A stretch of DNA of 64,000 nucleotides, from positions 18 through 64,017 of the forward strand of contig JBIPLY010000619.1 in the NCBI GenBank assembly GCA_044369385.1. Reading direction: 5' to 3'. Position 1 is the stretch's first letter; each line of letters opens with the position of its first letter. The position numbers and the translations under genes were made by a program. Shown piece after piece: positions 24,292 to 28,161 of this stretch. Under the pieces are notes generated by a model, which searched no databases, was not told the DNA's origin, and saw only the letters and a list, made by a program, of their open reading frames with translations. Origin of the DNA: Acetobacteraceae bacterium. GTDB lineage: Bacteria; Pseudomonadota; Alphaproteobacteria; Acetobacterales; Acetobacteraceae.

Positions 24292-24957
24292 TCAAGGAAG
24301 TTCCATTATTTTTGTCGTGAGCGCCCGTGTTCGCCGGGCTTGGTCTGCTCTAAGCGCCGACAAGCTATTGCCAAATCCAGGCGCGTCTAATTTGCCTTCG
24401 TTGTAAAACGCACGCACGCGAGCATCGACAATGCCGTCGAAACCGCGTGCGCGATCGGCGGCTGTGTAACCTTCCTTGAAGGCTTTGGCCGCTAGTGGAG
24501 CCTGGACTAGCATATCGGCGTACACCCACGCCTCAAGCCGCGAAAACTGAGGCTTAGAAATGATGAGCTTTTCGAGTTCGGGTTGCAGTCGTTTTGCGAG
24601 AAGTTCAGCGTCGGCACGCTCGGGCGATCGCGACTGGCACGTTGACGGTTGGCACGAAAACGATCCGACGTTCGGCGCGGCGTTGCCGGGGTCGGTATGG
24701 CCTGCGTAGGCCGACGTGATACCGCCTTCAATCGTCCGCGTCCCTTCCGCCATGCCGATGGCGATCGCGCCTGGGCTGTTGGGCGTAGCGAAGTCATTGC
24801 GGATGGGTTCAAGAGAACCCGACGGCAATGGTCGAACGTTGGTTGATTGGGTTGGTGTTGGTGGCTGTGTGCCGATTGCGTCACCGTCGATTGCCATTGC
24901 TCCTGACAGAACGATGAACGCGGCTAACCATGTGTTTTGGTTGGATAGAAATTTCAT
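24292..24957 (-). CDS. secreted peptidoglycan hydrolase candidate (lambda R / GH104 transglycosylase-like)
   Basis: Signal peptide MKFLSNQNTWLAAFIVLSGAMA. IGMAEGTRTIEGG...AGHTDPGN resembles the SEGT...H.D motifs of lambda-type transglycosylases. Confidence 0.45.
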   Translation of the reverse strand: MKFLSNQNTWLAAFIVLSGAMAIDGDAIGTQPPTPTQSTNVRPLPSGSLEPIRNDFATPNSPGAIAIGMAEGTRTIEGGITSAYAGHTDPGNAAPNVGSFSCQPSTCQSRSPERADAELLAKRLQPELEKLIISKPQFSRLEAWVYADMLVQAPLAAKAFKEGYTAADRARGFDGIVDARVRAFYNEGKLDAPGFGNSLSALRADQARRTRALTTKIMELP

Positions 24958-25577
24958 CGCTTAAGCACGGGCGAGGGTTTACGTCCGGTCATTGTTTGCC
25001 AAACCAAGTCGGCAGGCGGTGCAACTTTTTTGCCATCCTGCAACAGTTCCAAATGGAGATGAGCGCCGGTAGACATACCGGTATTGCCGGTGTTGGCGAT
25101 CGCTTCACCAGCTCGGTATGTGCCGGGGATGCAACGCTTCAGGTGGGCAAGACGGATCTCGCTACCGTCCGGCAGTCGGTAACTTCCCCACAAACCATAG
25201 CCGTCGGGTTCGTTTCCGCAAATCAGGTCAACGGTTTGACCTGCTTCGATTGCTGCGTAGAGTGGCGTACCTTCGGGTGTGGCGAGGTCAACACCGCTAT
25301 GATGCTTTTGCTCGCCTGTTACCGGATGAGTACGCATCCCGAACGGAGACGATACCGTATAGCCTGCGATGCGATCGCCTACCACAGGCGTTTTCGATAG
25401 CGACGGCGCAACGAATTCAGCGATCGCATTTTTGCGCTGCTCAGTTTCGGCGGCGACGGGTTTGGCGATCGTGCTGGTGGCGAGGACTCGCAGCGGTTCT
25501 CGGAACTCGCGAACGCCAACGATTAGGCAGTTTGCAATGATGACCGCTACTCTAATTTGCTTCAGTGAGGGTGACAT
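24954..25577 (-). CDS. M23 family metallopeptidase with N-terminal membrane/signal anchor
   Basis: FGMRTHPVTGEQKHHSGVDLATPEGTPLYA and GNTGMSTGAHLHLEL (HxxxD and HxH motifs). Confidence 0.85.
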   Translation of the reverse strand: MSPSLKQIRVAVIIANCLIVGVREFREPLRVLATSTIAKPVAAETEQRKNAIAEFVAPSLSKTPVVGDRIAGYTVSSPFGMRTHPVTGEQKHHSGVDLATPEGTPLYAAIEAGQTVDLICGNEPDGYGLWGSYRLPDGSEIRLAHLKRCIPGTYRAGEAIANTGNTGMSTGAHLHLELLQDGKKVAPPADLVWQTMTGRKPSPVLKR

Positions 25578-26025
25578 CTTTCACGACTCCTAATGTTGTA
25601 TAGCGGATATCCAACACCCGCCGCTCTGTGTTGCCCTGGACTACTCGCCGCTCGGTTCCGGCAAACGTGTAGCAAAGCGGTTCGCCCAAGATCTCAGCAA
25701 CTTGCGAGACGGTTTTGCCACTGCCAACTTGGCTAAACATCTGGTACTGAGCCAACGTAATCGGCTCCGGTCTGGGCTCTGTCTTAAGCGTGCAGGCGTC
25801 GATCGCGTCGGTTGCCCCGTAACCAAAATGCTCTTCGTTGATTCGGTCAACCTGGCTGGTGACGGTATCCAAGACGGACGGGATAGATGTGACGACGTTT
25901 GCCACATCTTCAACCAAGCCAAAGTTAAACCCGTTAGGCTTGGGGGACGTGACGACGCCATGAAGCATTACCAGCGATGCCGCCAATAATGCGTTCTGGA
26001 TTGCGTCGTCACGAGAGACTTGCAT
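25552..26025 (-). CDS. hypothetical protein
   Basis: 157-aa ORF within the coupled minus-strand block. Confidence 0.45.
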   Translation of the reverse strand: MQVSRDDAIQNALLAASLVMLHGVVTSPKPNGFNFGLVEDVANVVTSIPSVLDTVTSQVDRINEEHFGYGATDAIDACTLKTEPRPEPITLAQYQMFSQVGSGKTVSQVAEILGEPLCYTFAGTERRVVQGNTERRVLDIRYTTLGVVKDVTLTEAN

Positions 26026-26288
26026 TAGCGATCACCCCCAAACCACTCCATCTTTTTTAGCTCCTCACCACCTTCGTCACGAGCGGCAACAACCGCACCC
26101 CACGCAATACGACCCGTCGCCTGAGACAGACGAGAGACGGGATTGTCGAGAAATCCGCTCAACTCCTGAGCGCCAAACACGCCCGAAATTAACGGAAGTC
26201 CGACGATTACGAATGACAAAGCAACCCCGGTCGTTGTCCAGGGCTGCTCTTTGATCGCCTTTACGATTAGCGCGTCATCACGACTCAT
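26025..26288 (-). CDS. small membrane protein (holin candidate)
   Basis: 87 aa with one clear TM segment (TTGVALSFVIVGLPLISGVFGA). It lies upstream of the hydrolase genes. Confidence 0.45.
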   Translation of the reverse strand: MSRDDALIVKAIKEQPWTTTGVALSFVIVGLPLISGVFGAQELSGFLDNPVSRLSQATGRIAWGAVVAARDEGGEELKKMEWFGGDR

Positions 26289-26317
26289 TACTCAACTCCT
26301 GGCTTGTGTATGCCGCC

Positions 26318-26337
26318 ATTATACATAAAACACACAA
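26318..26337 (-). promoter_or_regulatory. TTGTGT-N8-TATAAT early-type promoter motif
   Basis: The minus strand reads TTGTGTgttttatgTATAAT, 30 nt upstream of the ATG at 26288. Confidence 0.5.
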
Positions 26338-26338
26338 G

Positions 26339-27520
26339 TTAGGAAATGATAGGCAGTGCGCTATCAATGGTTGCTACGACGTTGGTAAAATCGGGCAGAT
26401 ACTCAACTTTCTCGGTCTGTACGTCCAGAATGACGGGAATTTGCTTATGGCGCTTGGGACTGTTCCATAGTTTTAGAAACCGGTACTCAATCTCTTGCTT
26501 GCGTTTGGTGGACTGGAACAACACCGATCGCTGTCCCAAAATTTCGTCAGCAATCATCGTTTTGTTTTCGTCTCGTGCCAGACCGAACCACGAGAAACTT
26601 CGACGGGCTTGGCTGGTCAGCCCCATGTCTTCGCATAGTGCCGACTGCGTAATCAGGACAACATGAACGCCTGAGTGAGCGGCCATGTAAACGAGTTGCT
26701 GCAAAATCGTTTTGATTTTCTTCGCAAGAATCGTTTTGTTTTCGTCGTCGTATGCCTTAACCATTGCCAACATGGAAACCCACTCATCAGCCACGATCAA
26801 AAGTTTCTTCTGGGATAACTCAGGGTTCTCCTGGCGCTGTCTTGCGAGAACTTGCATTGACTCCCAAAAGTCAACGACAGCATCGGGATTGAACTTGTCA
26901 TAGTTCCCCGGTCTCGTGACTTTTGCTAGCGGAGGCCATTCGGTATCTTTGGGGTCAATGATACGAATATCGGATTCCGGGAATTGTTCCAGCATCGCAG
27001 CCAGGAACGCTTTGATCAGATAGGTTTTGCCCATGCGAGTTGCCGCCACGATCGCGACGTGCTTCGGCACGGTCGTGTCGGCCATCGTCGCGATCGCGCT
27101 GCCATAGCGATCGGCTATCGTTGGCGTTTTGACTGGTTCGGGTGGTAGCGAAATAGGGGGCGGATCGTCGATGGGGGCTGGAACGGAGATGGTTGGTGCA
27201 CTCGCCACCGTTGGCGGGGCGAAATCAAAATCGTCATCATCGTCGTCGTCTGGCTCAATTACGCGCGATCGTCTAGGCGATTCGGATGGCTCATCCTCAA
27301 TCTCATCATCGCCGTAGTCATCCCCGGCGGTTTTCATGAGCTGAAACGTTGCCCACGCCGATACTCCGCCCATGACTGCCAGGGGCAAATTTGGGCGAGA
27401 CGTTGTGCGGTAGGTTGTGCCGTCCTCAACTCGGATTTCGGAATGCTCCTGAAATCCTGCAAGTACGGCGCAACCTGACGCGATTAGGTTGAGCCAAAGT
27501 AATGATTTCGTTTTCGACAT
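26339..27520 (-). CDS. membrane-anchored FtsK/SpoIIIE- or coupling-protein-like P-loop ATPase
   Basis: N-terminal TM segments and an acidic linker (DDDDDDFDF). Walker A is VAATRMGKT. Also present are IIDPKDTEW, Walker B LLIVADEW and GVHVVLITQS (FtsK-like TQ motif). Confidence 0.65.
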   Translation of the reverse strand: MSKTKSLLWLNLIASGCAVLAGFQEHSEIRVEDGTTYRTTSRPNLPLAVMGGVSAWATFQLMKTAGDDYGDDEIEDEPSESPRRSRVIEPDDDDDDDFDFAPPTVASAPTISVPAPIDDPPPISLPPEPVKTPTIADRYGSAIATMADTTVPKHVAIVAATRMGKTYLIKAFLAAMLEQFPESDIRIIDPKDTEWPPLAKVTRPGNYDKFNPDAVVDFWESMQVLARQRQENPELSQKKLLIVADEWVSMLAMVKAYDDENKTILAKKIKTILQQLVYMAAHSGVHVVLITQSALCEDMGLTSQARRSFSWFGLARDENKTMIADEILGQRSVLFQSTKRKQEIEYRFLKLWNSPKRHKQIPVILDVQTEKVEYLPDFTNVVATIDSALPIIS

Positions 27521-28161
27521 CAGAAGTTCTCCCCATCACGAGCCATGCCCGCTTGTCGTTCGACAGTAAGCTGACGTTCCCAAAGGTCAGCCAAATTGCC
27601 AATCTGAACCGCTAACAATTCGGGACGCGCTCCGATGGTGCCTACCGTGTAATGACTGACCATCGCCTGCTGTGCCTCGGTTCGTGCGCCTTCCGGCGTG
27701 GCACGAGCGATCGCCAACATCAGCGCTTCTACCTCGATGCGTCGGATAGCTGATTCGCGCACGTCCCCCGTTGCCTTATCGTCAGCACGAGACGCGAGGA
27801 ACGATTGGAGACAAACCGTCACGTCTTGCTGATAGCAGTCGGTGTAAGCTTTGTCGCCGCGAAATGAATCAGCGCGTAACGCAAACTCACGCGCGATCGT
27901 ATCGATTTCTGCTCTTTGCTCTTCCTGTAGGAACGCCAACAAATTCGACTCAACCGCAGTCACTTCCGACGAACTCGCATTAATCGCGAGCGCCGGATCA
28001 AATTCGACCTGTTCAGACTTGCTGCCCTCTTCTACCACCTCAACTTTTGATGGCGACATCGCTTGCACCGTAAACATGACAGCCGCAGCGCCCATCAGCA
28101 ACTTAGGCCAATGCTCCATCATTAACGACTGAATATCTAGATCCCCCTCACGCTCTTTCAT
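27520..28161 (-). CDS. membrane-anchored hypothetical protein
   Basis: 213 aa with an N-terminal TM segment (WPKLLMGAAAVMFTV). Coupled to the ATPase gene by an ATG/stop overlap. Confidence 0.5.
   Translation of the reverse strand: MKEREGDLDIQSLMMEHWPKLLMGAAAVMFTVQAMSPSKVEVVEEGSKSEQVEFDPALAINASSSEVTAVESNLLAFLQEEQRAEIDTIAREFALRADSFRGDKAYTDCYQQDVTVCLQSFLASRADDKATGDVRESAIRRIEVEALMLAIARATPEGARTEAQQAMVSHYTVGTIGARPELLAVQIGNLADLWERQLTVERQAGMARDGENF

Follow-up and report, generated by a model that had tools for sequence, protein, structure and literature searches.

A membrane-anchored FtsK/SpoIIIE-clade ATPase linked to two predicted cell wall hydrolases in a cyanophage-like myovirus contig

FtsK-like coupling proteins of Gram-positive conjugation, such as TcpA of the Clostridium perfringens plasmid pCW3 and Orf21 of Tn916, are partnered by peptidoglycan hydrolases, for example TcpG/TcpI and CwlT. 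In the engulfment stage of sporulation, a septal DNA pump is likewise paired with membrane-anchored enzymes, which cut the glycan strands and the peptides of the wall. Genes for FtsK/SpoIIIE-like proteins have also been noted in phage genomes, their function being left unexplained in the passages concerned (PMC3335513, PMC13299392), and the parts of these two papers dealing with FtsK mention neither membrane anchors nor linked wall hydrolases. The 64,000-nucleotide stretch analysed here (the window), which spans nearly all of a 65.7 kb metagenomic contig, harbours a minus-strand cassette in which an ATPase of the FtsK/SpoIIIE clade with a predicted membrane anchor is encoded together with an apparent M23 endopeptidase and a lysozyme-like protein. 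In full-text literature searches, neither this membrane-anchored ATPase branch nor a link between it and wall hydrolases was found described. The cassette is tentatively read, with a probability of about 0.4, as coding for a trans-envelope or trans-septal translocase that brings along its own wall-opening enzymes.

The original prediction of six tightly packed open reading frames on the minus strand, extending from 28161 to 24292, was found to be correct in all coordinates. Designated here a to f, these genes code for a 213 amino acid (aa) bitopic membrane protein (a, 27520-28161), a 393-aa P-loop ATPase of the FtsK/SpoIIIE clade (b, 26339-27520), an 87-aa single-pass membrane protein (c, 26025-26288), a 157-aa N-terminally anchored protein (d, 25552-26025), a 207-aa predicted membrane-anchored M23 (LytM-type) metallo-endopeptidase (e, 24954-25577) and a 221-aa putatively secreted protein of a lysozyme-like family (f, 24292-24957). 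Genes a and b, as well as c and d, share a single base, the overlaps of d with e and of e with f comprise 26 nt and 4 nt, respectively, and the sole gap within the array is the 50-nt spacer between b and c; a is translationally coupled to b. In agreement with the N-terminal anchors originally proposed, a hydrophobicity scan detects a hydrophobic N-terminal segment in each of the six products. When the genes were compared with those of the closest relative (locus L002, whose ATPase is 88% identical), silent codon differences exceeded residue-changing ones in a to f, with counts of 147 vs 36 for b, 31 vs 1 for c and 71 vs 15 for e. Because silent changes so greatly outnumber residue-changing ones, a to f are, by this codon comparison, real genes under strong purifying selection.

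The product of gene b consists of a hydrophobic N-terminus, an acidic and proline-rich linker and a single motor domain. All motifs by which it was first recognised are present, namely GKT at residue 164 (27031-27023), IIDPK at residue 187 (26962-26948), ADEW at residue 244 (26791-26780) and ITQS at residue 290 (26653-26642), and so is the poly-Asp run of the linker (residues 91-97, 27250-27230); a family-specific LPDF motif is encoded at 26398-26387. The hydrophobicity scan flags residues 4-24 as a membrane segment, while a second one (residues ~45-62) is proposed by eye and by analogy with the relatives L023, L033 and L119, in which the second segment is flagged. An exhaustive HMMER scan of 1.84 billion protein representatives yielded 69 representatives related to b at E ≤ 1e-3, and just two more proteins came from a word-index search based on the family alignment; the family is thus rare. 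Neither the cassette (blastn) nor b (tblastn, E ≤ 1e-3) found a match among 50,697 phage records, and scans of IMG/VR and JGI metagenomes with the ATPase alignments gave no confirmed relative. An alignment of 20 family members shares the hydrophobic N-terminus, the proline-rich linker, the single motor domain and LPDF. Residues G164, K165, D189, K191, D245, E246, Q292 and R306 are invariant or nearly so in these 20 proteins, and the Walker A, (I/V)DPK, Walker B, sensor Gln and Arg finger elements are all conserved in the family.

As for its affiliation, the product of b matches the Pfam model DUF87/HerA above the cut-off (1.6e-5) and FtsK_SpoIIIE just below it (1.8e-4, 21.5 bits vs the 24-bit cut-off); the PHROGs search returned phrog_1358 (FtsK/SpoIIIE-like) with an E value of 2.3e-8, and PF01580 is matched by 7 of the 20 aligned family members. 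Among solved structures in the PDB, the family profile finds EccC (4.7e-24 with three domains summed; 5e-8 for the best single domain), the FtsK motor (1.3e-6), the pCW3 coupling protein TcpA (9e-6) and HerA (2e-3), the FtsK motor and TcpA scoring almost as high as EccC per domain. Run against 401 genomes of the phylum to which the metagenome-assembled genome (MAG) containing the contig is assigned, the same profile hit mostly the motor region of ~730-870-aa open frames (best E values of ~1e-9 to 1e-14), the sizes of which fit chromosomal FtsK, the frames themselves being unannotated. By these profiles, the product of b is a single-domain FtsK/SpoIIIE-clade motor of the HerA-FtsK superfamily, and not a packaging or housekeeping AAA ATPase. 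The "FtsK/VirD4-like" label of the original prediction is therefore retained in its first half only: TrwB was reached by the family profile with a non-significant E value of 0.84 and no Pfam match to T4SS-DNA_transf was obtained, so that a coupling protein of the VirD4/TraG/TrwB type was rejected for b. A bona fide FtsK was rejected as well, since none of the 20 family members has a Pfam match to FtsK_alpha or FtsK_gamma and b possesses at most two hydrophobic segments, not a four-helix N-terminal domain. A packaging ATPase, suggested by a match to the "terminase" family phrog_2666 (1.1e-5), was dismissed because two genes of the contig already encode a T4-type large terminase. The protein ends 15 residues past the motor domain; some distant family members are extended at the C-terminus by a segment in which a GGSK(K/R)Y-type motif recurs, and which the window protein lacks. 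A single-sequence AlphaFold2 model of b was uninformative, its mean confidence (predicted local distance difference test, pLDDT) being 41.6.

Of the two wall enzymes, the product of e is the more readily assigned. The M23 peptidase originally proposed was recovered with PF01551 at E = 5.9e-12 (46.1 bits vs a cut-off of 28.7), and the zinc ligands appear intact as H93-x3-D97 (HxxxD) and H173-x-H175 (HxH). Within NCBIfam the closest models are those of MepM/ShyA-type DD-endopeptidases (8.6e-14), and a homologous M23 protein is encoded at the position of e in L023, L031, L033 and L119. Judged by its sequence, the protein is an M23 endopeptidase in which the catalytic motifs are kept.

The product of f begins with a hydrophobic leader followed by an A-M-A motif near residue 22 (both read by eye). 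It has no match in Pfam or PHROGs, and the profile of its family retrieved nothing significant from the PDB. Forty-four relatives were detected, in all of which Glu71, part of an AEGT motif, is invariant; the family motifs read AEGTRT...GHTDPGN...DQxRR, and in some relatives a PG_binding or LysM domain is fused to the protein. An AlphaFold2 model built on a 32-sequence alignment reached a pLDDT of 86, and the top Foldseek hits of this model were all endolysins of the GH24 or lysozyme type, among them the signal-anchor-release endolysins R21 and DLP12, although these hits were weak (best E = 0.21, template modelling score 0.38-0.50) and none was significant in the PDB; the viral library BFVD returned endolysins with a probability of 0.87-0.98. 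When f was aligned by hhalign with the lambda-type enzyme of L031, only the AEGT motif was matched (probability 1.4%). The transglycosylase-like character first ascribed to f is thus upheld indirectly, by the weak lysozyme-like model, the invariant Glu, the fusions to peptidoglycan-binding and LysM domains and the lambda-type transglycosylase found at the same position in L031. It is suggested that f represents a previously undescribed lysozyme-like family without a Pfam model, the assignment of the fold being tentative.

Relatives of f number 238 in species-representative genomes. The best 80 of these 238 loci belong mostly to filamentous cyanobacteria, with Myxococcus, Corallococcus, Archangium and a few Acidobacteria also present, and the chromosomal homologues among them include those of Geitlerinema, Baaleninema, Roseofilum, Leptolyngbya, Nodosilinea and myxobacteria; the closest cellular ones among those listed come from Geitlerinema, Baaleninema, Roseofilum and other filamentous cyanobacteria. 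In cellular genomes, homologues of f stand alone and have ordinary chromosomal surroundings. An ATPase gene lies within 10 kb of the f homologue in 0 of the best 80 of 238 loci, for which reason a prophage or cellular origin of the cassette was rejected.

Gene neighbourhoods were read for ten relatives of the ATPase. In L002, the same six homologous genes are found along with one inserted small gene, and the same six are also present in L023/L024, where the ATPase is 35% identical and all products of a to f have homologues in L023 with E values from 1e-8 to 1e-81. L031 (ATPase 28% identical) retains the order and sizes of the genes and a homologous M23 protein, while its last gene codes for a lambda-type lytic transglycosylase with similarity to lambda lysozyme structures (PDB 3d3d, E = 8e-20). 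The order and a homologous M23 protein are also kept in L033 (28%), in which the contig ends before the last gene, and in L119 (24%) the M23 domain and a lambda-type transglycosylase are fused in one protein. The annotated start of this fused gene (4761-5876) probably truncates an N-terminal hydrophobic anchor, given that the frame is open upstream and includes a TTG start, with GGAGA before it, as well as a hydrophobic stretch. An ATPase followed by two small membrane proteins and an M23 peptidase is accordingly an order preserved in five lineages (window/L002, L023, L031, L033 and L119), although the ATPases of the divergent cassettes are only 24-35% identical, and the linkage of ATPase and hydrolases claimed at the outset stands down to the lowest of these identities. 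A glycosidase was identified in four of the five lineages, the relevant part of L033 being unreadable. Since this position is filled by non-homologous enzymes (the f family here, a lambda-type enzyme in L031), and since the two activities are fused in L119, selection seems to act on a peptidase-plus-glycosidase pair beside the motor.

Not every member of the ATPase family shares this conserved linkage. In L026 an M23 domain occurs only in an 801-aa protein 4.6 kb off, none is found near the ATPase genes of L029 and L025, and the neighbourhoods in L028 and L032 are cut by contig ends. Every ATPase context that was read contains genes of replication or nucleotide metabolism (helicase, RuvC-like, DnaN, dCTP deaminase, UvrD, thymidylate kinase). 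In L025 (1309-2382 and 6834-8180) the distant ATPase family member lies 4.5 kb from a gene for an XisA/XisC-type recombinase, which suggests that this locus is an integrated element of a heterocyst-forming cyanobacterium.

The small proteins of the cassette are less well conserved in sequence between distant cassettes. The product of a has a hydrophobic segment at residues ~20-37 followed by a long, helical, presumably extracytoplasmic part; homologues were found in L002 (E = 1e-127) and L023 (E = 4e-34), and no match in Pfam, PHROGs or the PDB. Distant cassettes have a gene of equal size and topology at this position, without detectable sequence similarity. The hydrophobic segment of c covers residues 17-43, and its homologue is present in L023. 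The product of d, with homologues in L002 and L023, would expose a small C-terminal extracytoplasmic domain, which matches the Pfam model BamE weakly and below the cut-off (E = 0.015). Comparison of a, c and d of the distant cassettes by hhalign detected no homology, whereas size, order and N-terminal anchors are kept across cassettes. No PHROG match to holins or spanins was obtained for a, c or d, though these families are very diverse.

Downstream of f, the genes g (23763-24245), coding for a 160-aa soluble and fast-evolving protein, and h (23560-23766), coding for a 68-aa soluble protein, continue on the minus strand up to a strong intrinsic terminator at 23537-23517 (minus strand; a GC-rich 7-bp stem, a 7-nt loop and T8), so that the unit comprises eight genes rather than six. 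In contrast to a to f, gene g shows 59 residue-changing and 46 silent codon differences from L002, and in h the silent differences likewise do not greatly outnumber the residue-changing ones. In L026, the related ATPase gene has a homologue of h (31% identical) two genes downstream. When the PDB was searched with profiles of a, d and h, no significant match was obtained, and no WxG motif was seen by eye in g or h.

Upstream of a, a promoter-like element, TTGCGT-N9-TATGCT, was read by eye at 28203-28223 on the minus strand. The b-c gap contains a second such motif, TTGTGTGTTTTATGTATAAT (26318-26337, minus strand), an exact match to TTGYGT-N8-TATAAT that is oriented toward c and lies upstream of c-d-e-f. 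With at most one mismatch, TTGYGT-N8-TATAAT occurs seven times in the window (0.28 expected by chance), other copies preceding the helicase, exonuclease, DnaN-region, methyltransferase and helicase/primase units. The element before a may be regarded as a degenerate form of the same motif, to which a promoter role is ascribed from sequence, and the cassette is in these terms tied to the promoter class of the replication genes. One copy with a single mismatch lies in the f-g gap on the plus strand (24258-24277) and points antisense into the hydrolase genes, where it might serve as an antisense regulator. Directly downstream of the cassette terminator, a phased TTGCG array was observed at 23099-23505, and a second array is located at 62.7 kb; such an array is also found downstream of the cassette in L002 (about 14400-15000) and is absent in L023/L024. 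That the array could be a clt-like site for a translocase is speculative.

The contig carrying the window (C575) belongs to a 640-contig metagenome bin, from which it departs in G+C content (53% vs 67.7% for the bin) and as a tetranucleotide outlier; it has no terminal overlap. It is a mis-binned phage contig inside an unrelated high-GC MAG, and consequently the taxonomy of the bin is uninformative with regard to the phage host. On the basis of its genes for a large terminase, portal, tail sheath, baseplate proteins and tape measure, the contig is assigned to a contractile-tailed phage, a cyanophage-like myovirus; genes for several helicases, DnaN, a RuvC-like resolvase, dCTP deaminase and a ribonucleotide reductase subunit are encoded as well. 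The tail sheath protein matches 17 of the 50,697 phage records, 15 of these 17 being cyanophages, with phages of Nostoc, Anabaena and Leptolyngbya at the top. Comparisons of baseplate J and DnaN likewise indicate cyanophages, and together with the sheath and the homologues of f they suggest that the host is probably a cyanobacterium, and a filamentous one. The large terminase is split into an ATPase part (5194-6195) and a nuclease part (8064-8663); the two are ~1.9 kb apart, and the interval, with a G+C content of 47%, contains a transcriptional-regulator-like gene and a 312-aa gene without an assigned family. The contig also codes for a 560-aa GGDEF-EAL protein (638-2320; EAL 5e-61, GGDEF 1e-25), that is, one of cyclic di-GMP turnover. 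An 832-aa protein encoded on the minus strand (9075-11573) contains a GH19 endolysin-like domain (phrog_181, 1e-31), and its best full-length relative is a "tail protein" of Leptolyngbya phage Lbo402-yong5; its probable role is that of a lysin associated with the virion. Apart from this protein and the products of e and f, nothing in the window was recognised as a separate endolysin of the classical kind.

If the cassette codes for a translocase, its parts might cooperate as follows. The N-terminal segment or segments of b would tether the single motor domain under the cytoplasmic membrane by way of the flexible acidic, proline-rich linker, an arrangement also seen in FtsK, SpoIIIE, TraB and TcpA, the motor being a translocase of the hexameric type known from the FtsK/SpoIIIE clade. 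The small bitopic proteins a, c and d would surround the motor and link it to the two wall enzymes, which would be exported or anchored on the outer face, the M23 endopeptidase cutting peptide cross-links and the lysozyme-like glycosidase cutting glycan strands. Peptidoglycan would thereby be opened locally and the motor could transport a large cargo, double-stranded DNA being the most probable one, through the envelope or a septum. DNA is the likeliest cargo since, to our knowledge, every characterised FtsK-type motor with a single domain and a membrane anchor (FtsK, SpoIIIE, TraB and TcpA) functions in DNA transfer. The sequence analysis establishes which genes are present, to which family the motor belongs, that M23 keeps its catalytic motifs, that the anchors exist and that the linkage is conserved, whereas a physical complex, its cargo, the direction in which this would be moved and the time at which the genes would be expressed are what we infer. 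The stand-alone chromosomal homologues of f and the resemblance of e to the MepM/ShyA space-makers seem to fit wall remodelling better than lethal lysis. A more specific, and rather improbable, version would be a septal pump that pushes replicated phage genomes into neighbouring cells of the filament without an extracellular step or, as a variant, a device that fragments the filament by splitting its septa and so disperses infected cells.

Several observations weigh against a translocase. The best PDB match of the b family is EccC, a protein-secretion ATPase, and b lacks a DNA-recognition (gamma or winged-helix) domain, none being found by Pfam in the family. Proteins a, c and d have neither detectable relatives of known function nor demonstrable homology between distant cassettes. 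In the more distant relatives L026, L029 and L025 the hydrolases are not adjacent to the ATPase, and the order of phage genes is often conserved without direct functional coupling. Owing to the promoter-like site in the b-c gap, a-b and c-f could be separate units, with c-f transcribed independently of a-b. Finally, the 832-aa GH19 protein is the single other lysin recognised, which leaves e and f as possible lysis enzymes.

The last points lead to the main alternative, considered somewhat less probable than the translocase, namely that two neighbouring functions have been taken for one. In that case c-f would constitute a lysis or wall-degradation cassette, with a small membrane protein as the holin or regulator and with the M23 and lysozyme-like proteins as endolysins that are Sec-exported or membrane-tethered, whereas a-b would be an unrelated membrane-tethered DNA motor serving replication, the handling of concatemers or genome segregation. 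The promoter-like motif in the b-c gap and the existence of distant ATPase relatives without adjacent hydrolases agree with such a division, as do the appearance of R21 and DLP12 among the top fold-search hits of f, the common occurrence of M23 plus muramidase pairs in endolysins and virion lysins, and the fact that no further stand-alone endolysin was recognised in the window. Yet in five lineages, with ATPase identities as low as 24%, motor and hydrolase genes remain adjacent even though the genes on either side vary, and the promoter motif of c-f is that of the replication genes. Moreover, the leader of f appears (by eye) to be cleavable, the f family is tolerated as a normal cyanobacterial chromosomal gene, and no spanin or holin family was detected among the small proteins.

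It seems improbable that the cassette is a minimal type VII-like export system, in which an EccC/EssC-like ATPase with small membrane partners would export phage proteins such as g, h or a hydrolase. The EccC ATPase domains are indeed the best PDB matches of b (4.7e-24 summed, 5e-8 single), a weak NCBIfam match to EccCb was obtained, and the small soluble proteins g and h are predicted to be co-transcribed with b, h remaining linked to the ATPase in L026. However, b has one ATPase domain and not three, the FtsK motor and TcpA nearly equal EccC per domain, and the hydrolases have N-terminal export signals of their own; Pfam, NCBIfam and PHROGs scans of a to h revealed no core component of a type VII secretion system, nor was a WXG100-like protein seen.

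Just as doubtful is a role in superinfection exclusion or host manipulation, with the motor and the wall enzymes altering the envelope or septa so as to block a second infection or to fragment filaments. All products of a to f would be located in the envelope according to the hydrophobic-segment scan, the promoter motif belongs to the early class, and an M23 peptidase with a glycosidase recalls the enzymology of septal splitting (EnvC/NlpD-amidase, SpoIID/P). A partial PADLOC match of the P-loop region of b to mad8 (5.9e-9) is limited to 55 residues, and membership in a defence system was rejected for that reason; no full-length match to any defence family was found, the need for a motor is left unexplained, and we know of no exclusion system that uses an FtsK-type motor. 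The T4CP-plus-VirB1 module envisaged in the original prediction, and with it a conjugative type IV secretion system (T4SS), was abandoned because C575 has no match to the single model searched for a VirB4-type ATPase (PF12846, AAA_10; matches only on bin contigs C444 and C217), and because no contig of the bin matches PF03432, the one relaxase family searched.

Modules that combine an FtsK-family translocase with wall hydrolases are a known kind of system; what appears to be new is a phage-borne, membrane-anchored branch of the family in which the linkage to hydrolases is conserved. The cassette provides a concrete handle on the function of phage FtsK-like genes, and the genes that it keeps together may be regarded as the inventory of an apparatus for transporting a macromolecule across the cell wall. 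Should DNA be the cargo, a conjugation-like or septum-crossing device would reside within a virus, and models of phage spread in multicellular bacteria would have to be altered. If the genes are only a lysis cassette, they represent a new arrangement of secreted lysins for cyanophages, and even then f would stand for a new family of lysozyme-like enzymes common in filamentous cyanobacteria and myxobacteria.

Among the described systems, EccC/EssC provide the best-scoring solved structures for the b family profile and are also membrane-anchored, but they have three tandem ATPase domains and serve WXG100-type export, and their partner proteins were not found in the scans of a to h. Phage proteins of PHROG 1358, for example from Bacillus cereus-group prophages and Sinorhizobium phage AP-20-A, are matched by b at 2.3e-8. 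With FtsK/SpoIIIE, the latter acting beside SpoIID/SpoIIM/SpoIIP, b has in common the anchor, the Pro-rich linker and the motor, as well as the IDPK, Walker A/B, Gln and Arg-finger motifs. It differs by lacking alpha and gamma domains, by having no more than two membrane segments (one of them by eye) instead of four, by its length of only 393 aa, by a score under the Pfam FtsK_SpoIIIE cut-off and by being encoded in a phage.

TraB of Streptomyces with its Spd proteins resembles the cassette in that a single FtsK-like membrane motor is the only ATPase and is accompanied by several small membrane proteins without a family; the multicellular filamentous host (probable here) and the possible transfer of double-stranded DNA between connected cells are further likenesses. 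Compared by description and not by sequence, the C-terminal winged helix of TraB reads clt repeats, whereas b ends 15 residues after the motor, and TraB systems are without dedicated hydrolases.

In comparison with TcpA/Orf21, the contig yielded neither a VirB4-type ATPase (AAA_10 model) nor a PF03432 relaxase, and a VirB6-like polytopic protein is not seen in the cassette, which is carried by a tailed phage with a probable diderm cyanobacterial host and not by a plasmid or an integrative and conjugative element, and the peptidase of which is of the M23 type and not NlpC/P60. One hallmark of conjugative T4SS is nevertheless present, as the M23 and lysozyme-like proteins would correspond to the dedicated peptidoglycan hydrolase of the VirB1/CwlT/TcpG type. 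One or more N-terminal anchors followed by one FtsK/SpoIIIE motor (profile match to TcpA, 9e-6), small bitopic membrane proteins nearby and a glycosidase-plus-peptidase pair, fused in the L119 cassette as in CwlT and TcpG, are shared with the TcpA/Orf21 systems. By analogy, then, the parts list recalls both TraB/Spd and SpoIIIE with SpoIID/M/P, and its closest resemblance is to the minimal DNA-transfer apparatus of Gram-positive conjugation.

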